From UHGV virus genome UHGV-1351982: 64,000 nt of DNA; one strand, written 5' to 3'. Source of the DNA: a virus. A program made the position numbers and the translations under genes. The notes beneath the pieces were generated by a model, which searched no databases, was not told the origin of the DNA, and worked only from the letters and a program-made list of their open reading frames with translations. Each line of letters opens with the position of its first letter. Position 1 is the first letter of the stretch. Below, one piece after another: positions 3,705-63,301 of the stretch.

Positions 3705-3736
3705 ATTTGCTTTCAGGAAAAATTTTCTGTATAATA
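3705..3736 (+). promoter_or_regulatory. sigma70-type early promoter (TTGCTT -35, TGTATAAT -10)
   Basis: 17-bp spacer; downstream CATAAATTTGAGAGAGGAG leader; drives gene at 3767. Confidence 0.7.
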
Positions 3737-4737: not shown

Positions 4738-4768
4738 GTTGCTTAATCCTGTAATTCTTGATATAATA
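4738..4768 (+). promoter_or_regulatory. sigma70-type early promoter (TTGCTT -35, TGATATAAT -10)
   Basis: 17-bp spacer; upstream of gene at 4826. Confidence 0.65.
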
Positions 4769-5954: not shown

Positions 5955-5985
5955 CTTGCTTTCGACTCAGTTTTCATATATAATA
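5955..5985 (+). promoter_or_regulatory. sigma70-type early promoter (TTGCTT -35, TATAAT -10)
   Basis: 17-bp spacer; conserved downstream box ATTTATATAAATTGATGAGAGGA. Confidence 0.7.
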
Positions 5986-42312: not shown

Positions 42313-43629
42313 TTATTTCCCACGGGAAATTGAGTAAATTCCATAACGCAGTGCGTCACAAAGGTGAGAGTTCGCATCATGACGTGGTTTTTCACGTGAT
42401 AATTTCTCTTCGCCTTCCTGGAAGTCCCACTTGTAGTTCGCTAGGGCGTGGATCAATGAGGTACATGAAGCATCTACGATGATCTTGCCTTGCTGGAACA
42501 GTGCTTGCAGACATGCCAAACCATCTAGGACAGATTTCTTAGCAGGTGCAGAAGCGATTTCATGTTCATATGCTAAGTCCTGACGGAACTGAGCAGCAGC
42601 GGAGTCTACAAATATACGATCAACATTATAACGATCTATGCAGTGTTGGATATAAGCAGCGTGTTGAGCTGTAGTCTTTTCAGCTTGCTGATATTCTTCC
42701 AGTACGTAATAAACATCAGTATCATAGTGATACTTGATAGTAAGAACTGCTGTAGGGTCACGATAACCAACGTCGATACCAAGTAATGTTTCGAAAGCCT
42801 CATCATCTTTAAAGAAGTGGCGCATACCTTTGAGGTCTTTAACATGTTCGATAGCATTGAAGGTGTCAAAGATCTGACCTTCGAATACAGAGAAGTCAGC
42901 CTCATATTCTTGACGGAAGTAGTTTTTACTAACAGTACGACGCGCTTCTTCGATATCGTTCAGATCAGCACGTGGGTTATCACGATATGTACCATGAATA
43001 GATACCCAGTTAGGTAGCGTTTCGTTAAATCCTTTCTCATAGAACTCTTTAAACCAGTTACCACCACGAGGTGTGGAAATAAACAGAGCTTTAGAGTTTG
43101 GCTTATCTAGAGTAGGACGTAACTGAATATCGAAAGCTGCACCACCAACGTCGGAAATCGCTGCTTCGTCAAAAATGATGAAGTCATATGAACGACCAAC
43201 CGCGGAGTCAGCCTGCGCCGCAGAAGCCAGCTTAAAGAGAGAGCCGTTTGCTAGCTCAATCTCTTTATCTTTGGCGTTCTCACGTTCAGTCTGTAGTCCA
43301 TACTTCTTAATAAGACCACGAATCTGTGACCAACCGATGTTAGCCAGTGAGTAGTTAGGTGCAACTACCAGCACCTTCACATTGGGTTCCAGAAGTTTTA
43401 GGAACCCAAGTGTATATGCGATGAATGACTTACCTACACGACGTGATACACATGCAGTCACGAAGCGGTGTCTTGGGTCTTCCAGCGCATTAATGATTGC
43501 AATCTGAGGGGCATTAGGTGTAATTCCCTCTTGAGCTAGAATGCTAGAGACTGGCAGACGGAAGAATCGTTTGTCAATACCAAAGTCAATAACATCTGTG
43601 GTGTTAATATAGTCTCTAGAGACTTTCAT
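42313..43629 (-). CDS. terminase large subunit
   Basis: 438 aa; Walker A-like (VSRRVGKSF); nuclease-type acidic residues C-terminally; canonical position. Confidence 0.85.
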   Translation of the reverse strand: MKVSRDYINTTDVIDFGIDKRFFRLPVSSILAQEGITPNAPQIAIINALEDPRHRFVTACVSRRVGKSFIAYTLGFLKLLEPNVKVLVVAPNYSLANIGWSQIRGLIKKYGLQTERENAKDKEIELANGSLFKLASAAQADSAVGRSYDFIIFDEAAISDVGGAAFDIQLRPTLDKPNSKALFISTPRGGNWFKEFYEKGFNETLPNWVSIHGTYRDNPRADLNDIEEARRTVSKNYFRQEYEADFSVFEGQIFDTFNAIEHVKDLKGMRHFFKDDEAFETLLGIDVGYRDPTAVLTIKYHYDTDVYYVLEEYQQAEKTTAQHAAYIQHCIDRYNVDRIFVDSAAAQFRQDLAYEHEIASAPAKKSVLDGLACLQALFQQGKIIVDASCTSLIHALANYKWDFQEGEEKLSREKPRHDANSHLCDALRYGIYSISRGK

Positions 43630-44111
43630 TATCTCTTACCTCCTCCTGCTAGAGCGGTAATAAGATTCATATAGTTTTCGTCACCACTTCCAGCAATAAT
43701 ATTATTCTGAATATTAGTCTGGTTAGCCGGAGTACGGGCTGCTGCCTTCACTTTCTCCAGTTCTACCATCATTTTCATTTCTTCCATCTTCATCTTGTGC
43801 GCCTTCCAGAGAATATCCATGATATCCTGGTCAGAACCCATGCCAGTTTCTTCGAGTTCTTCCAACTTGCGCTTGATAACTTCATCAAGAACTCCGAATA
43901 AGCGGTCACGATTACGGAAGCCGCTTTCCATAAAGATATCGTTAAGATAGTTTTTAACTTCCCCACGATTCATTATATCACGGAATGCAATCTCGGACAT
44001 CCCAAGACTACGAGCAGCGGCAGGAACATCACTACCGCACTGTAAATAGGCTTCAATAACATCCATGCCTTCGGGAGACATGAGATCGGGAACTAATACA
44101 TCATTTGCCAT
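43629..44111 (-). CDS. terminase small subunit (putative)
   Basis: 160 aa; N-terminal HTH-like region; stop overlaps large terminase start. Confidence 0.6.
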
Positions 44112-44121
44112 ATATCCTCCT

Positions 44122-45903
44122 TTAGGTTAGGCGTTGAACTGTTACACGTAGTCTTGGCAAGAAAACAGCTGCCGCTTCTGCAGCGTGAATGATAACACCC
44201 AACTCAACGTTGCCATTACCAAGGTTTTTAATAGTATAAATATATCCGTTCCTACGGAAAGCAAACTTATCAGGCCTACTAGCCCAAGTTTGTGTATAAC
44301 TATAGGAAGTTGTACTGTGATAAGGTACTAGATATCCAGGTGGCAGAGTAAGAATCTGGTGGAATACACCATCACCAGCTGTATAACTTTGTTGACGTCT
44401 ACCTTGTACCTGCCAAGCGCTACCGCCGTAAGTACGCACAGGCATTCCAGCAGTATTAAGATTACCCATAATAACTTCAGTAGTTAATATAACGGTAGAG
44501 TGAGCATTAGGTAATCCTAACCAAACAGTGGCCAAAGGTGTATAGAAGTCACCAGCACCAGGGTAGGAAGGAGTTATATCATCACCAACATAAGTACTTG
44601 CAACGTTGCCTGGAAATAACCTGAGGGGTACAGTACTAGGACTCCACACAGGTCCATGTTCATTACCGATGGAGTTGGTATTAGTATCTACATACCATTG
44701 TTTACCTACACCAAATTTATATAAGCTAATTTGAGAAGCTGCACCCCCATAGTTAACAGGAGACCACAACCCGCCATTACTAGAGCCGATAAATTCACAT
44801 CGTGCAGTATTATCACCAAAAACTCCGGTATACGCAGCGTTATTACCAACATACTCCATATCAGGGCGATAGCCTAAGTTTCCAAAGGCATTCTGGTTAA
44901 TGAATTTATATCCTGTATTTGGTAAACTAACACCTTTAATAGTAAAGTTAGATGGAGATATTAGGATATCTGAACCGGTAAATGGATTACCAGAAACTCC
45001 CATACTACCATTAGAATAGCGCAGATTTAGCACATACCAAATAACCTTAGTTGGCGTAACGTTATACCAGTCCTGTACATATACCTTTCTAGCAGACTGA
45101 GCAGCCATATTAGAAGTAGAACCTCTACAAACATATATTTTTTTTGGATATGCAGGAGATTGGTAAAGAACGTTTACGTTATCTGGTAGTACACCTTTCT
45201 TACCTGCAAAGCCACGAATATTAGAATTACAAACATAAAACCAATCATGGCCTCTACCAGCAGAACCAACAGGCGCCTGCCAGTTAGGTTCCCAATAATC
45301 TGCGTTACCACCATCTAAAGGAACAGTAGAGACACCAGTTGGAAAACCCATAAGACTCCAGGCTCTGGCAATGGCTTCACCAGCAGAAACACCACCAGGT
45401 CTAAAGATCTGGAAACCAGAGGACTGTAGTAAACTGCCTCCAGAACCTTGCCGAGCAATAGATTCCTCATGACCAAGACCACCATTATAGATATAGGTAC
45501 CATGAGCTAAACTATCACCGATCGCAAAAGCAGATGTTACAGATAATTCAGCACCAGCACGTGGTTGGTCTTCAAAGAATGATAAGAACTGGCCAACCTG
45601 AGATTGTGTACCATTAAGGAAACCCCTATGAGTACCATTTATCTCAATAGCAGTTAATATAACTCTACCAGGATCATTGGATTTAATGTTTATAATATCC
45701 CAAGGCATCTGAGTAACAAAGTACCCATTACCTGCATCACCTAGGGCAGCCTCATAAGTCCCATCAACTAGGACGAAGGGCATATCTGAGTGGAAGATAC
45801 TATTAGTATTTGGAGAGTAGTGCTGATTTATATCACCACCATTAGCAGCGTTTAGAGATAATACAGTTTTACCATCACTAAATTTTCCTGCGAAAAAACT
45901 CAT
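44122..45903 (-). CDS. receptor-binding tail protein (T5 pb5-like)
   Basis: 593 aa; Gly/Asn/Ser-rich; N-terminus MSFFAGK... resembles what I recall of T5 pb5; divergent from a lipoprotein gene, as for oad/llp in T5. Confidence 0.6.
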
Positions 45904-45927
45904 ACAATCTCCTTCTTTAAAAATGTA

Positions 45928-45959
45928 TTTGCTTAGATCCCTCTATTTTGCTATAATAT
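45928..45959 (+). promoter_or_regulatory. sigma70-type promoter for the lipoprotein gene (TTGCTT -35, TGCTATAAT -10)
   Basis: Conserved downstream box ATATTTATAAATTAAACAGAGGA; lies in the divergent region shared with the receptor-binding gene. Confidence 0.65.
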
Positions 45960-45986
45960 ATTTATAAATTAAACAGAGGAACGATT

Positions 45987-46253
45987 ATGAAAAAGTTACT
46001 AGCTATCGTAGTTGCAGCAGTAGTGTTGACTGGTTGTGTGCCAGCTCCCGAGCCATTTTGTAGGGCATATGTGAAGTCTTATGGTCATGTTGGTGAAGAA
46101 CACTACGCTTTAGATATTCGAGAAGCACGTACTGTGGGCTACCGATTCCCTAAAACTCAGTTACGCACTAAGTTTGGGTGGTGGGATTTGTCACAGTTTG
46201 ATCTCAAATATGGCGATTGCAAATTTAAACTAGAACAATCTGGTCACTTGTAA
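45987..46253 (+). CDS. llp: lipoprotein, Llp-like (candidate receptor-blocking / superinfection-exclusion protein)
   Basis: 88 aa; signal peptide with lipobox (AVVLTG-C); conserved early promoter upstream; divergent from receptor-binding gene. Confidence 0.7.
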   Translation: MKKLLAIVVAAVVLTGCVPAPEPFCRAYVKSYGHVGEEHYALDIREARTVGYRFPKTQLRTKFGWWDLSQFDLKYGDCKFKLEQSGHL

Positions 46254-46327
46254 TTAGTATAAAGTAAAAAGATCTCGAAGTAAACAAAAATTTTTATTTC
46301 TGGGATGAGGTACAGGTAGCAAACACA

Positions 46328-46642
46328 ATGCAAGATGAAGAAAAGTCCTTTCAGGAACCTGTTAACTTTGAAATAGATCCCAGGACTAAAGCAATACATG
46401 ATGCGATTAACGAAATCATTCAAGACGTCATAGAAGATACAATGGAAGATGTGATGGGAACATCCTTCTTACTAGAAGAATCCGGCTTCGATGAAGTAAT
46501 GGATCTTATCGGGACAGTCATAATGGTTCGTGCAATTGCTAGGATATTCCAAATACCAGGACTACAGGAGAAGCAAAGAGATGTCAGACGACAACAGAAG
46601 AAAGAACAGACGCGGGGAAGTGTACGAAAGTTGGATAAATAG
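46328..46642 (+). CDS. hypothetical acidic protein
   Basis: 104 aa ORF; overlaps the next small gene in another frame. Confidence 0.4.
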   Translation: MQDEEKSFQEPVNFEIDPRTKAIHDAINEIIQDVIEDTMEDVMGTSFLLEESGFDEVMDLIGTVIMVRAIARIFQIPGLQEKQRDVRRQQKKEQTRGSVRKLDK

Positions 46643-46715
46643 TTTCGGATTCGGGACTGTATTATTCTTTATCTTTGTACTCTTTTGGTTAGCGGCTATG
46701 GCGGGATGGTTATAA
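46581..46715 (+). CDS. small membrane protein
   Basis: ATG at 46581 after GGAGAAG inside track ORF 46530-46715; basic N-terminus then one hydrophobic helix. Confidence 0.4.
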   Translation: MSDDNRRKNRRGEVYESWINSFGFGTVLFFIFVLFWLAAMAGWL

Positions 46716-46819
46716 TGGAAGTAGTAATTATTGCTTTACTAGTTGTGGTACTTATCGGGCAGTGCATCTTAGACAACCACTTAGCTCGTATCGAACGTAA
46801 GCTGCGGGGAGACAAATAA
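46715..46819 (+). CDS. small membrane protein (34 aa)
   Basis: Not in track (below size cutoff); ATG overlaps upstream stop (TAATG); hydrophobic N-terminus MEVVIIALLVVVLIG. Confidence 0.4.
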   Translation: MEVVIIALLVVVLIGQCILDNHLARIERKLRGDK

Positions 46820-47013
46820 TGGATTGGTTAGGACTTATTACACTTGTAGTATGGCTTGTCTGGATTGTTGGATATATGACTTCACATCGTAACCGTATAC
46901 AGCGGCTAGAGGATAAAGTCACCCAGCTTAATATTAATATGGATAAGTTACTGGACTCCCAACGTAATGATCGGGCACGTATTCACCAACTTGAGAGGGA
47001 ATTAGATGTTTAG
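46819..47013 (+). CDS. small membrane protein
   Basis: 64 aa; start overlaps upstream stop (TAATG); N-terminal TM helix followed by a charged helical tail. Confidence 0.5.
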   Translation: MDWLGLITLVVWLVWIVGYMTSHRNRIQRLEDKVTQLNINMDKLLDSQRNDRARIHQLERELDV

Positions 47014-47233
47014 CTTTGTAGCTATCTTCATTATCGGGGTGCTTGCGGGAATCTTCGGAACACTCGGGGCTATTAACAAGCATCGTGAATACGTTGCGGG
47101 AGTATCGCGGGAGCTTTCGGAAAGGGAGCGGAAGTTTGCGGAGAAACGTGCGGAGTTTGAGCGAGAGTGGTCGGATGGATCTCGGGCGTCGCAGAGGAGG
47201 TTTCGGGCTGATTCCGTGAGTTCTCCTAAGTAG
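47006..47233 (+). CDS. small membrane protein
   Basis: 75 aa; N-terminal TM helix, Arg/Glu-rich tail; followed by strong terminator. Confidence 0.5.
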   Translation: MFSFVAIFIIGVLAGIFGTLGAINKHREYVAGVSRELSERERKFAEKRAEFEREWSDGSRASQRRFRADSVSSPK

Positions 47234-47340
47234 CGCTAATTTGACTTTTGCCAAATCTCATAAGATTACACATGAAGGTGTGCCCAGAGGTTCCCTAGAT
47301 GAGAATGAGTCTCATTACCGCCCCCTTACTTAGCAAGCTA

Positions 47341-47390
47341 ATAGTCACACCATGTTATCATTACACAGTGTGACTATTTTATTTTTAATT
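47341..47390 (+). terminator. intrinsic terminator after small-membrane-protein genes
   Basis: 10-bp stem ATAGTCACAC/GTGTGACTAT followed by TTTTATTTTT. Confidence 0.6.
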
Positions 47391-47391
47391 G

Positions 47392-48126
47392 TTAGGCAAC
47401 TTTTAATTTATCAATGAATTGTTGCGGTGTGGTACTATATTCCGCGCGTTCTTCCTCGGTCATACCTTCCCAACACATTTTTAAACGTTCGGCTAGGAAT
47501 TGATAATCGTTATCATCATCAAGCGATTCATCAATAAAGGTTTCACCGATCAATGTTACGCCGATTGATAGGATATCGTTAACGGCTTGAGCATCCAGCG
47601 TTTTAAATCCAGCACTTGCCGCCGCTGATAATACACCTTTATGATCATCAATCATTGTAAAATCAGCATTAGGATATAGCTGTTTAAACAGTTCAAAGTA
47701 ATAAGATTTATATACAGCGTCTTTACTGTGGTATATTTCGCTAACCTTATTTGCATCAAAGTATTTATGTAATGTATCGCGGGAAAATACGCGAATATTA
47801 CTATTTCCGCGCCCTCGCAAGCCTTGTTTGCGTAAATAAAAATAATCGCTTTTAGACATTAGGCGCGCGGTACAAATAATATTTAAAGTATTTGCATCAT
47901 TCATACATTGGCGCATATATTCAACCAATGGCAATAAAGAATCCTGCATAATTAAATCATGCTTGCAGGCTTCGCGGGAATATTTATTTAAATCTAAATT
48001 CCCATTATCATCAAAACAAGGCCCGACACGGTGCATTGAGTTAATGATTGTACCGTCTAAATCCCAAATCATAACGCGGGAAATATGCGGGAAAGTGCGG
48101 GTAATATTCATGTTGACTTGATTCAT
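47392..48126 (-). CDS. dmp: 5'-deoxyribonucleotidase, HAD-like (T5 Dmp-like)
   Basis: 244 aa; HAD motif I (VMIWDLDGTI); pre-early gene neighbourhood with A1/A2 homologues. Confidence 0.7.
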   Translation of the reverse strand: MNQVNMNITRTFPHISRVMIWDLDGTIINSMHRVGPCFDDNGNLDLNKYSREACKHDLIMQDSLLPLVEYMRQCMNDANTLNIICTARLMSKSDYFYLRKQGLRGRGNSNIRVFSRDTLHKYFDANKVSEIYHSKDAVYKSYYFELFKQLYPNADFTMIDDHKGVLSAAASAGFKTLDAQAVNDILSIGVTLIGETFIDESLDDDNDYQFLAERLKMCWEGMTEEERAEYSTTPQQFIDKLKVA

Positions 48127-48213: not shown

Positions 48214-48606
48214 TTAATTAGTGAGGCCATACGCTAGCGCGTCACCAATAAAGCTAAGATCTTCACCATGTACGCTAGAACGAATCCCCGCGCAAGTGTA
48301 GACCATCGCGCTAGCTTCTGGATTGCAGACCGGACACGGCTTAACAACCGCAAACGCTAGACCGGATTTAAGCGCATCAATAATAATTGTTTGTACTGTT
48401 AAAGTATCAGCGTAAACACCTTTTGCTTTTGTATGGCTTGCCACTTTGCCGGTATCATAAGCAAAGGTAGTAACCTGCAAAACGTCGTTATAATTCAGCA
48501 AATCGAAATTAACTTGCCCCGCCTCGACGTGATAACGTTCGCCATTAGAATAAACTAGAACGATGGAAGAAGTAGCGCGGTCAAAAGGAATGCTTTGGTT
48601 TTTCAT
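48214..48606 (-). CDS. hypothetical protein
   Basis: 130 aa ORF in pre-early operon. Confidence 0.5.
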   Translation of the reverse strand: MKNQSIPFDRATSSIVLVYSNGERYHVEAGQVNFDLLNYNDVLQVTTFAYDTGKVASHTKAKGVYADTLTVQTIIIDALKSGLAFAVVKPCPVCNPEASAMVYTCAGIRSSVHGEDLSFIGDALAYGLTN

Positions 48607-48969: not shown

Positions 48970-50634
48970 TTATGCAAAGAATTTACCGTTCTTAAAGTCA
49001 ATCAATGTTCTTTGACCGTTTGCATAGGTAATTAAATGCGTTTGCGTCCAGCTTGACGCGCCCACGTTGTAGCCCATATCAAGGGAACCAGCAACGCCAG
49101 CGGTATAAACGCCGCCGTAAATGCTAGCCGTATGAGTATGACCAGTGTTAAGGCGTCCCAACTTTTTAAACTGCTTAGGATTGCCCCGACTGCCGTTAAT
49201 GCCATTGTGACCATGTACGCCGCATTCAATGCCAGCGATTTTAAACGACTGGTCAGTAGTCAGGAAAATAGCGTTAAATTCGCAACCTGCGACACTACGC
49301 AAGGCGTAATCTAGCACGTTAAAAGTATCATCCTTTTCAGCAATAGCGGCGTATATAGCAGCGTTTAGACGGTGATACAATTCCGCGTTTGCGGGATCGT
49401 CTTTAATGTTAGCGTTACGATCATCTAACCAGCGGGATAAAGCTAAATCATGGTTAGATTCAACAATGATTGTTTGAGAGAAATCACGCTCCATTGATTC
49501 TAATACGCGTCCAGTGTCGATAAGATCATCTAGAACCTTGTCACGTCCTGCGGCGTACTGTTTAGCAAGGAATACACCACTAGCGCGGTTGTGATGGTTA
49601 CGCGATGTAAAATCATGCACATCATGAATAAACTGATATTTAGGCTTGAGAATATCAAGCAAGCTGTTTTCACTAGCCCATGAAGCAACGGCGCATTCAT
49701 CATCTAATTTTTCGGCGTGAATATCACCATATTGCAAGCCTAGAACATGATCGGACGTTTCAAAACATCCGGTAGGCATAGCGCAAACATTCAAATCATA
49801 AAACATTCCGCTTTCGTCCATCGTTTCAAGCTGACGAACAAAAAATTCGCCGTCGTCGTCAAATTCTACCAGCAAAGCGCCGAAATTATGTAAAGCCTCG
49901 GCCTTTTGTCCTGCCTTTTGCTGGATATAGTTTTTAAGCGTAGCCGTTCCGGTTGAATACATACGGCGCACTACTTCACCTTTTAACGCTGGCACACTTT
50001 CAGCGGTAATTTTAGCGTGACCAATTGCCAGACCTTCAATATTTAAAGCCGTGGCGGTTTCTGCGAATCCTGAAAGCGGATAGTCTGCCGTTGGTAACAC
50101 GTTAATTTCAGCCATGAAAGCAAAACGGCGATTATTTAAAAATACGTTTTTCTCGCAAATATATTTATTAAATGCGGGATCGTATTTAATGCCTTCGTTA
50201 CCTTCTCCATTCTGGAAGCCGTTTTTATTGTAAATGAATTTACTAACCAGCAATTCACCGCCGATATATTCAGCGAATTTTTCCAGACTTGCTAAAAAGT
50301 TTTTATGCGGGAAAGTATTATTTTGAATCGACGTTAGAATAAAACGGCGACCGGATTTAACTTCCCACTGTTCCACGGTACTAGAAACAATTCCCGCCGC
50401 TTCGGGGCGATCATCATTTTTAATCGCCTTTTCAGCTTTTGCCGCTTTCGGTTTTGCTGGCTTATTTGCTTCCAACCAATCGCAAATTGCGGTTGAATGT
50501 TTCGTTGTATCGTAAACAGCTTTTGATATATCGTCGCAAACTTCCAGCTTAGTAGCGCGTAAACGTTTACCGTAGAAATTAAAATCAGCGGCAAGTTTAA
50601 CGATCTGGGCTTGTTTTTCTGCGGAAATATTCAT
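48970..50634 (-). CDS. A1: A1-like pre-early protein, metallophosphoesterase fold
   Basis: 554 aa (T5 A1 recalled as ~556 aa); calcineurin-type motifs (SDH, GDIH, ESNHD, GHTHT). Confidence 0.8.
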   Translation of the reverse strand: MNISAEKQAQIVKLAADFNFYGKRLRATKLEVCDDISKAVYDTTKHSTAICDWLEANKPAKPKAAKAEKAIKNDDRPEAAGIVSSTVEQWEVKSGRRFILTSIQNNTFPHKNFLASLEKFAEYIGGELLVSKFIYNKNGFQNGEGNEGIKYDPAFNKYICEKNVFLNNRRFAFMAEINVLPTADYPLSGFAETATALNIEGLAIGHAKITAESVPALKGEVVRRMYSTGTATLKNYIQQKAGQKAEALHNFGALLVEFDDDGEFFVRQLETMDESGMFYDLNVCAMPTGCFETSDHVLGLQYGDIHAEKLDDECAVASWASENSLLDILKPKYQFIHDVHDFTSRNHHNRASGVFLAKQYAAGRDKVLDDLIDTGRVLESMERDFSQTIIVESNHDLALSRWLDDRNANIKDDPANAELYHRLNAAIYAAIAEKDDTFNVLDYALRSVAGCEFNAIFLTTDQSFKIAGIECGVHGHNGINGSRGNPKQFKKLGRLNTGHTHTASIYGGVYTAGVAGSLDMGYNVGASSWTQTHLITYANGQRTLIDFKNGKFFA

Positions 50635-63221: not shown

Positions 63222-63301
63222 TAGAATTTCCTCTCTCTCATTAATTTATGAACTTATTATACAGAATTTTAAAGCTAAAAGCAACTGAATTTTTTATTTA
63301 C

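Follow-up and report, generated by a model that had tools for sequence, protein, structure and literature searches.

Within the window, a 64,000-nucleotide stretch of the virus genome UHGV-1351982, four overlapping small genes at 46581-47233 (ORF1 to ORF4) are the Epseptimavirus version of the phage T5 genes T5.159-T5.162; we thus rediscovered an uncharacterised cluster that has been annotated since the T5 genome was published. Each gene encodes a predicted single-span membrane protein. Together the four may form an inner-membrane complex that blocks the entry of further phage DNA and complements the receptor-blocking lipoprotein Llp, an assignment that we put forward tentatively. The new part of the locus, and the one most worth following up, is a phased array of CGG motifs inside ORF4, beside the genome end. 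The window comes from a T5-like Salmonella/E. coli phage (Demerecviridae, Markadamsvirinae, Epseptimavirus) and shares 96-98% identity with three Salmonella phages, Stitch, 1-29 and BD13, and with Escherichia phage SmurfNell.

Conservation of the four genes

The initial annotation had described four consecutive open reading frames (ORFs) of 44, 34, 64 and 75 amino acids (aa) on the + strand, and the coordinates bear this out:

46581-46715, + strand: ORF1, 44 aa, T5.159 orthologue; basic N-terminal tail and C-terminal predicted transmembrane (TM) helix at about residues 22-40
46715-46819, + strand: ORF2, 34 aa, T5.160 orthologue; predicted N-terminal TM helix, then a conserved DNHLARIE motif
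46819-47013, + strand: ORF3, 64 aa, T5.161 orthologue; predicted N-terminal TM helix, coiled-coil-like tail and invariant terminal ELDV
47006-47233, + strand: ORF4, 75 aa, T5.162 orthologue; predicted N-terminal TM helix with GxxxGxxG and a highly charged tail

Adjacent genes overlap by 1 nucleotide (nt; TAATG) at ORF1/ORF2 and ORF2/ORF3 and by 8 nt (ATGTTTAG) at ORF3/ORF4. These overlaps are as claimed before, and the architecture is conserved across the T5-like subfamily: TAATG or ATGA and ATGTTTAG overlaps are kept in the related loci examined, and the ATGTTTAG start overlap of ORF4 is found in all loci possessing ORF3. Shine-Dalgarno-like motifs could be read from the sequence ahead of ORF1 (AGGAG, 10-nt spacer), ORF3 (GGGGAG, 7-nt spacer) and ORF4 (GAGAGGGA, 5-nt spacer), and the ORF2 start is preceded by a weak GGGA alone. 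The conserved stop/start overlaps fit translational coupling of the four genes.

All four proteins match PHROG families over nearly their full length, namely phrog_8596 (ORF1, E = 2.4e-28), phrog_6369 (ORF2, E = 1.5e-22), phrog_5851 (ORF3, E = 6.4e-36) and phrog_6447 (ORF4, E = 4.3e-42). At the identical position the T5 records hold T5.159 (42 aa), T5.160 (35 aa), T5.161 (64 aa) and T5.162 (81 aa), each with the note 'contains single transmembrane domain'. We compared ten loci (Stitch, 1-29, FGS009, KookSpook, T5, DT57C, OSYSP, DaisyDussoix, KPP2018 and the window). Across these diverged loci, at ~70-97% nucleotide identity, ORF1-4 are intact and their order and overlapping stops and starts are kept, so that the frames, whose loss in relatives would have spoken against the genes, are conserved. 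ORF1 is 77-100% identical across the 10 loci. Between the window and T5, ORF1, ORF2 and ORF4 share 73-83% identity, and ORF3 is merely ~38-44% identical to Tequintavirus versions.

In the same comparison the proportion of non-synonymous differences (pN) stays below that of synonymous differences (pS) in every gene: pN 0.13 and pS 0.60 in ORF1 (ratio of the corresponding rates, dN/dS, 0.12), pN 0.21 and pS 0.84, the latter saturated, in ORF2, pN 0.38 and pS 0.61 in ORF3 (dN/dS 0.43), and pN 0.20 and pS 0.38 in ORF4 (dN/dS 0.45). Judged by the PHROG matches, the intact overlapping order in ten loci and pN < pS, all four are genuine genes. The block occurs in 446 phage records and the neighbouring gene dmp, at 80% identity or more, in 445, making the block effectively core to Markadamsvirinae.

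Copy number varies in a few phages. The Klebsiella phage KPP2018 lacks ORF3, and a further ORF2 paralogue, 51 aa long and with 14 residues inserted, is present in DaisyDussoix and KookSpook (variants located at L009 959-1114, L006 1216-1371 and L008 1343-1695). An hhalign probability of 76% is suggestive of shared ancestry of ORF2 and ORF3, possibly as distant paralogues. The C-terminus of ORF4 differs in the window because of a ~23-nt indel: the protein has 75 aa ending …RADSVSSPK (47205-47233), against 81 aa ending …RMSESGDKPVDRxSS in the closest relatives. In Stitch-type phages an additional 71-aa ORF is inserted between ORF4 and the terminal repeat (L001 2849-3064).

A profile search with ORF4 against 1.84 billion representative proteins returned 5 clusters, all close T5-like relatives, and no relative outside T5-like phages. 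A word-indexed search yielded 92 ORF4 clusters, of 54-85 aa in most, and the matches listed are T5-like phage records or T5-like-sized contigs. The same applies to the best 120 of the 272 clusters (at 90% identity) obtained with ORF3. All four proteins were found in T5-like phages only.

Predicted membrane topology and family searches

The single hydrophobic helix per protein noted earlier was recovered by hydropathy analysis, which finds one 19-residue segment in each (mean Kyte-Doolittle hydropathy 1.9-2.8; 2.33 in ORF1 and 2.79 in ORF2) with K/R clustered at one flank. Each of ORF1-4 is therefore predicted to span the membrane once. In ORF1 the segment is C-terminal and follows a basic N-terminal tail (MSDDNRRKNRRGEVY…). 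In ORF2-4 it lies at the extreme N-terminus; these proteins start with ME, MD or MF, without positive charge, and K/R-rich sequence comes next. The non-membrane remainder of each of the four is charged, as the initial annotation had stated; it had called these tails Arg/Glu-rich, and in ORF4 this richness is partly imposed at the DNA level. AlphaFold models ORF4 as a single long helix at low confidence (pLDDT 58.6).

Sequence searches of Pfam, NCBIfam, PADLOC and PDB gave no significant match to ORF1-4. Sub-threshold matches to PspB, LapA, MotB_plug, CcmD and DUF7365 are typical of TM-plus-coil composition. An Rfam scan of 45900-47450 found nothing. A locus-tag literature search found no article text discussing T5.159-T5.162, and the supplement of PMC13250531 was likewise blank.

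Several identities were considered and rejected. ORF3 homologues named 'tail assembly protein' are widespread in UniRef, and a 38-aa ORF2 homologue is named 'tail fiber protein'. Both names occur in the phiLLS annotation table, in which dmp appears as minor tail protein and the receptor-binding protein as superinfection exclusion protein; we rejected them because this table plainly misnames neighbouring genes, and no experimental basis for the names was found. A holin identity was rejected since the only match was to phrog_1296 at E = 0.02 (ORF3) and there is no adjacent endolysin gene. For spanins the best matches had E = 0.021 and 0.073, and a periplasmic coiled coil of ~100 aa or more is expected, against tails of 15-52 aa; in addition, ORF1-4 carry no lipobox, Llp, of the Cor family, is the sole lipoprotein in the vicinity, and the positive-inside rule predicts cytoplasmic tails. 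ORF1-4 are not members of the Cor/Llp lipoproteins either, as they have neither a lipobox nor a phrog_1119 match, both of which are found in the neighbouring gene at 45987-46253. Membership of ORF3 in PspB was rejected on scores of 16.7 bits against a cut-off of 25.6 (PF06667) and 15.8 against 90 (PRK09458).

A phased CGG array inside ORF4

The distal part of ORF4 carries an unusual arrangement of short motifs close to the physical end of the genome:

47097-47206: nine to ten (G/T)CGG(A/G)(A/G) motifs arrayed with helical phasing, in ORF4 codons 31-67
47281/47282: junction where unique sequence gives way to the terminal repeat and left physical end of the genome, reading …GAAGGTGT before and GCCCAGAGG… after the cut

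CGG (or CGA) stands at 47097, 47108, 47118, 47129, 47139, 47151, 47162, 47172, 47183 and 47204, with a spacing of 10-12 nt, or double, and the sites alternate between two codon phases. The GC content of the segment is 60% compared with 39.9% for the window. CGRRR motifs reach 11 per 130 nt, where 0.58 are expected and the next-best value on the + strand of the window is 4. Tandem Repeats Finder did not detect the array.

Codon choice in codons 31-67 departs strongly from that in the long ORFs of the window. Arg is encoded by CGG in 4 of 9 cases (1.0% in the long ORFs), Ala by GCG in 4 of 5 (8.7%), Ser by TCG in 4 of 5 (3.7%) and Glu by GAG in 6 of 7 (30%). Back-translation with window codon usage gave a mean CGG count of 0.77 and a maximum of 6 in 200,000 trials, as opposed to the 9 observed (P < 5e-6). 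The best period of the array is 10.7 nt (P = 0.0005 versus random placement). A period of 10.5 nt is the helical repeat of DNA and equally a protein heptad (3.5 residues), so that periodicity alone is ambiguous; the codon choice points to DNA. The sites are individually conserved in ten phages, and at one of them Ser TCG has changed to Ala GCG, yet CGG is retained. Synonymous divergence is low here, with pS of 0.20-0.28 in codons 31-67 compared with 0.35-0.65 in ORF4 codons 1-30 and 0.55-0.84 in ORF1-3. Dual coding does not explain this, since an alternative frame inside ORF4 is not conserved (14 aa from ATG in the window, 26-69 aa elsewhere). The Arg/Glu-rich tail of ORF4 thus appears to be largely a translation of the CGG motifs.

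The array lies 72-185 nt outside, that is upstream of, the left genome end. The position of this end at 47281/47282 is given alike by the repeat annotations of T5 and Stitch and by the base at which the Sw2 record, with termini assigned by PhageTerm, begins. The boundary motif, TGA(A/G)GGTG(T/G) before and GC(C/T)(C/T)AGAGG after the cut, is conserved between Markadamsvirinae and Sugarlandvirus (window 47240-47330; L011, L014 and L015), and both groups keep a ACCGCCCC-like box, which reads ACCCCCC in Sugarlandvirus, some 40 nt into the repeat. The record of the Sugarlandvirus Spivey begins at the homologous position (…GAGGGTGG before, GCTTAGAGGG… after).

Klebsiella phage DevonBitter, also a Sugarlandvirus, has its own array of TCGGGAAGTTC-type motifs just outside the cut, with a period of 10.5 nt (P = 0.018) and 12 CGG in 201 nt against 2.4 expected. 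It falls within the tail, rich in Ser and Gly, of a protein of 153 aa that has an N-terminal TM helix and for which no homology to ORF4 could be detected. This protein and one of 74 aa (MEVVIGALV…) are encoded by Sugarlandvirus at the map position of the block, both with an N-terminal TM helix and a helical tail (L011 4361-5050). Neither has significant homology to ORF2-4, and what is conserved at this position is the TM-plus-tail architecture, not the sequence. In Proteus phage RP7 five 21-nt direct repeats lie outside the genome-end motif (L012 4481-4639), and the annotated 52-aa 'hypothetical protein' there (…CVTLFVRCVTLFVRCVRLVV…) is probably just the translation of these repeats. A phased motif in Vibrio phage D25 is unsupported (P = 0.32). 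The P-values for RP7 and D25 are optimistic because the motifs were picked after viewing the sequence.

Phased repeats beside a cleavage site, conserved independently of coding, are what a pac-like element would display, and the array shows them. We consider it a real possibility, if still short of an even chance, that distal ORF4 (47097-47206) is a cis-acting array on one face of the helix, serving as a recognition platform for the T5-type terminase or another concatemer-processing factor, with the gene written over it. The main alternative is that the array is an iteron-type replication origin. In a bolder version of the recognition platform, coupled transcription, translation and membrane insertion of the four proteins would hold the packaging site at the inner membrane.

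Cis sites embedded in coding sequence are known from the iterons of the lambda origin inside gene O and the pac sites in small-terminase genes of the P22/SPP1 type. These too are phased short repeats within an ORF, and like the CGG array they adjoin the place where they are thought to act. The array differs from them in lying in a small membrane-protein gene and in being associated with exact ends with ~10-kb direct terminal repeats. Our literature search, of incomplete coverage, found no description of the T5 concatemer recognition or cutting site.

Predicted transcription unit and map context

Around the block the following features were located:

45929-45962, + strand: llp promoter of the T5 early class; TTGCTT 45929-45934, 17-nt spacer, TATAAT 45952-45957, ATATT discriminator 45958-45962
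45987-46253, + strand: llp, a Cor-type receptor-blocking lipoprotein of 88 aa with lipobox LTGC; phrog_1119 'Cor superinfection exclusion protein', E = 2e-23
46328-46642, + strand: orf104, an acidic 104-aa protein, phrog_16810, between llp and ORF1
47340-47386, + strand: terminator-like hairpin and U-run; 11-bp stem of 47340-47350 with 47368-47378, U-run 47379-47386, inside the terminal repeat
43629-44111, - strand: small terminase subunit gene
44122-45903, - strand: receptor-binding protein pb5/oad
47392-48126, - strand: dmp, inside the terminal repeat
48214-48606 and 48970-50634, - strand: two ORFs beyond dmp, inside the terminal repeat, which we take to be the T5 A2 and A1 genes

The order llp, four ORFs, right terminal repeat with dmp is common to T5, DT57C, OSYSP, DaisyDussoix, FGS009, KookSpook, Stitch and 1-29, and the repeat starts 48 nt past ORF4. 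The llp counterpart is labelled receptor-blocking protein in the Stitch and 1-29 annotations. The initial annotation had placed the four genes next to a lipoprotein gene; they do lie downstream of llp/Cor, with orf104 intervening.

The T5 sequence upstream of llp has an identical promoter layout. Perfect TTGCTT-N17-TATAAT sites number 5 in the 64-kb window, and 7 when sites with 1 mismatch are included, compared with 1.0 expected. The four other perfect sites are at 3707-3735, 4739-4767, 5956-5984 and 63256-63284 (- strand), and the one at 3707 is nearly identical to the classical T5 promoter P_N25. The ATATT discriminator is a hallmark of T5 early promoters (PMC7472727), and Llp is described as an early-expressed lipoprotein (Decker et al. 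1994, as cited in PMC4342426 and PMC10644984). From llp to the end of ORF4 the scan found no promoter-like site on the + strand and a single weak terminator-like site; the latter lies within ORF1 and does not exceed the chance expectation. Together these features suggest one early operon of llp, orf104, ORF1, ORF2, ORF3 and ORF4.

The strong terminator proposed for the end of the block is borne out in part. The hairpin and U-run are real, and the segment 47325-47395 (71 nt) folds at -18.4 kcal/mol (z = -4.95 versus shuffled sequence). Among 8 phages, 5 of the 8 pairs that were aligned show compensatory double changes; the stem of T5-type phages differs but is just as fully paired. By this covariation the hairpin is a real structural element. 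On the other hand, 107 nt separate its start from the ORF4 stop upstream, it lies within the terminal repeat, and G-C pairs make up only 4 of the 11 bp of its stem; a simple terminator scan missed it (47340-47378). It is likely the transcript end, and could instead be an element of the genome end.

The last 62 nt of orf104 overlap ORF1 in another frame. In this overlap pN is below pS in the ORF1 frame and not in the orf104 frame, indicating that the constraint is carried by ORF1. The non-overlapping part compared with FGS009 has pN 0.12 and pS 0.56, the pattern of a gene that purifying selection maintains in Epseptimavirus, FGS009 and KookSpook. In T5, DT57C, OSYSP, DaisyDussoix and KPP2018 orf104 is a decayed remnant with stop codons (L003 3164-3326).

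The window contains one copy of the terminal repeat only (47282 to ~57300), the end being estimated from the 9.8-10.2 kb repeats of relatives. Beyond ~57300 its sequence agrees with single-repeat assemblies of relatives such as STG2. From the sequence arrangement, the source record is evidently a collapsed-repeat or permuted assembly.

Possible function in blocking DNA entry

A transcriptome-wide T5 knock-down screen by CRISPRi-ART (PMC11879866, supplementary file 16) covers the four T5 genes:

T5.159: fitness -3.86, 5 guides, Not Fit
T5.160: fitness -3.55, 7 guides, Not Fit
T5.161: fitness -4.11, 6 guides, Not Fit
T5.162: fitness -3.60, 4 guides, Not Fit

Blocking translation of T5.159-162 is without measurable cost to T5 on the laboratory host, and the genes are dispensable there. 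In the re-annotation of the same study (file 8), T5.159-161 still carry the label 'unknown function', and T5.162 is named 'membrane protein'.

In the model that we favour, a transcript from the early-class llp promoter would carry the genes together with llp and orf104 and would end at the hairpin 47340-47386. By the positive-inside rule the soluble parts of all four proteins would face the cytoplasm, ORF1 being tail-anchored with its basic N-terminus inside and ORF2-4 exposing the N-terminus on the outside and keeping a charged helical C-terminus inside. Since the overlapping genes fit translational coupling, the four proteins may be produced together and assemble into one small inner-membrane complex. 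This accessory complex would act after the DNA of its own phage has fully entered, closing or blocking the inner-membrane route of T5-type DNA entry, so that superinfection exclusion at the inner membrane would complement the block of the outer-membrane receptor by Llp. That the four proteins form such a complex we regard as a tentative proposal only.

Three observations support it: the transcription unit that the genes appear to share with Llp, their conservation irrespective of the receptor, and their place as the last genes to enter. First-step injection transfers the left terminal repeat only (PMC10644984). The block lies directly before the right-hand repeat and is the last unique DNA to enter the cell, so that expression would be impossible before DNA transfer is complete. 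The Llp of the window has no match in the T5 locus, while ORF1, ORF2 and ORF4 are conserved, and T5 and BF23 are described as having non-homologous Llp proteins (PMC10644984). ORF1-4 thus show no dependence on receptor type, in contrast to llp and the receptor-binding gene, as would be expected of a receptor-independent block.

Several points weigh against this proposal. No homologue with demonstrated function was found among the family and database matches, and the proteins are similar neither to the inner-membrane exclusion proteins already known nor to PADLOC, NCBIfam, Pfam or PDB entries. The topology, the transcription together with llp and the formation of a complex are all predicted. 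A laboratory score of 'Not Fit' suits many other accessory roles equally well. The neighbourhood of llp is weak evidence, because the module of llp and the receptor-binding gene is exchanged independently of ORF1-4. The absence of ORF3 in KPP2018 and the duplication of ORF2 elsewhere indicate that the stoichiometry is not fixed, and part of the conservation of ORF4 seems to be owed to the DNA array, not to the protein. The functions named in the initial annotation (superinfection exclusion, injection control, membrane remodelling) are not established.

Alternative functions

An unlikely alternative is that the tails tether replicating or concatemeric T5 DNA, or the nearby packaging site, to the inner membrane; the tails in question, basic and cytoplasmic in ORF1 and ORF4 and coiled-coil in ORF2 and ORF3, would work like the small early membrane protein p16.7 of phage phi29. 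The arrangement of N-terminal TM helix, helical tail and basic end would suit such a membrane anchor, ORF4 being modelled as one long helix and having 14 K/R residues in its tail. The genes are also 48 nt from the genome-end cut site and over the phased array, and their dispensability in the laboratory matches that of p16.7. However, searches of Pfam, PDB and other collections revealed neither a DNA-binding domain nor any similarity, by sequence or by profile, to DNA-binding proteins, and because the composition of the ORF4 tail is largely dictated by the CGG/GAG array, it may not be selected for DNA binding. The array bears as well on the idea that some of the ORFs are non-functional proteins, with ORF4 or its tail a tolerated translation of a cis-acting DNA array. 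Rare codons, the 9 CGG against 0.77 expected and the suppressed synonymous divergence in codons 31-67 agree with it, as do the Sugarlandvirus array under a non-homologous protein tail, the dubious 52-aa ORF over the equivalent repeats of RP7, and the variable length and sequence of the ORF4 C-terminal end. Codons 1-30 of ORF4, on the other hand, vary synonymously and yet have pN < pS, the ATGTTTAG overlap is present in every locus with ORF3, and ORF4 is 54-85 aa long in most of the 92 clusters. With high pS, low pN and no nucleotide-level anomaly in ORF1-3, the idea cannot explain the whole block, for which we consider it most improbable.

Small membrane-protein regulators of bacteria bind and tune or inhibit membrane machines, and by analogy ORF1-4 might modulate host inner-membrane proteins (a transporter, a protease or a Psp-like stress sensor) or the membrane effector of an abortive-infection system. 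Their size of 34-75 aa with a single TM helix, the GxxxGxxG helix-packing motif of ORF4 and their accessory status in the laboratory K-12 host are in line with this. ORF3 weakly resembles PspB (Pfam E = 0.008, 16.7 bits against 25.6; NCBIfam E = 0.014) and ORF1 the N-terminus of MotB (E = 0.049), but all such matches are below curated cut-offs and of the kind that a TM helix plus coil produces, and PADLOC gave no match. T5 shuts off host gene expression early (PMC10644984), which makes induction of a host stress regulon an unlikely purpose, and on balance we doubt such a modulating role. Doubtful to a greater degree is a part in lysis, as timing regulators (antiholin-like or holin-associated) or a second spanin-like set. 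Lysis regulators are typically small single-span proteins with charged tails, and among the PHROGs ORF3 weakly matches one holin family (E = 0.02) and spanin families of the Rz-like type (E = 0.02-0.07); these matches are not significant. T5-like phages have a cassette of holin, endolysin and inner and outer spanin elsewhere in the genome (PMC4342426, PMC6658699), hence ORF1-4 are not the canonical lysis set. The tails are also predicted to be cytoplasmic, not periplasmic, none of the four ORFs has a lipobox, and the one promoter identified for the block, which lies upstream of llp, belongs to the early class, not to the late one.

Relation to known systems and significance

The closest counterparts are T5.159-T5.162 themselves, which are orthologous to ORF1-4 and alike in order, overlaps, single TM helix and location, with llp on one side and the right terminal repeat on the other. 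The window differs from T5 in its intact orf104 (a remnant in T5), in an ORF3 of ~38-44% identity and in an ORF4 of 75 instead of 81 aa. With Llp/Cor (T5 Llp, phi80/T1 Cor) the block shares the predicted transcription unit, early class, accessory nature and action at the cell envelope. Llp, however, is a secreted outer-membrane lipoprotein with a lipobox that changes with the receptor, and ORF1-4 are predicted to be inner-membrane proteins and are receptor-invariant.

T4 Imm and HK97 gp15 are small inner-membrane superinfection-exclusion proteins that are dispensable in the laboratory. Being small, phage-encoded, dispensable and located in the inner membrane, they provide the functional analogy that we favour for ORF1-4, although there is no detectable sequence relationship and the block comprises the products of four overlapping genes instead of one. 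The phi29 protein p16.7 is early and non-essential and consists of an N-terminal TM helix, a coiled coil and a basic C-terminal part with a folded DNA-binding domain. It resembles the layout of TM helix, coil and basic region in the block, but its DNA-binding domain is undetectable in ORF1-4 and no homology was found. PspB (PF06667) and ORF3 are similar in size, in predicted N-out/C-in layout and in having a helical cytoplasmic tail, with scores below the cut-offs.

As a gene cluster the block is ordinary, being present in essentially every T5-like phage. Knowing what it does would close a gap for a classical model phage and would bear on mutual exclusion among T5-like therapeutic phages. For annotation, the DNA repeats call for caution: the Arg/Glu tail of T5.162-type proteins, the Ser/Gly-rich tail in Sugarlandvirus and the 52-aa 'ORF' of RP7 may mainly reflect such repeats. 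The array itself is a concrete and mutable candidate for the site at which T5-like concatemers are recognized and cut into genomes with ~10-kb direct terminal repeats.

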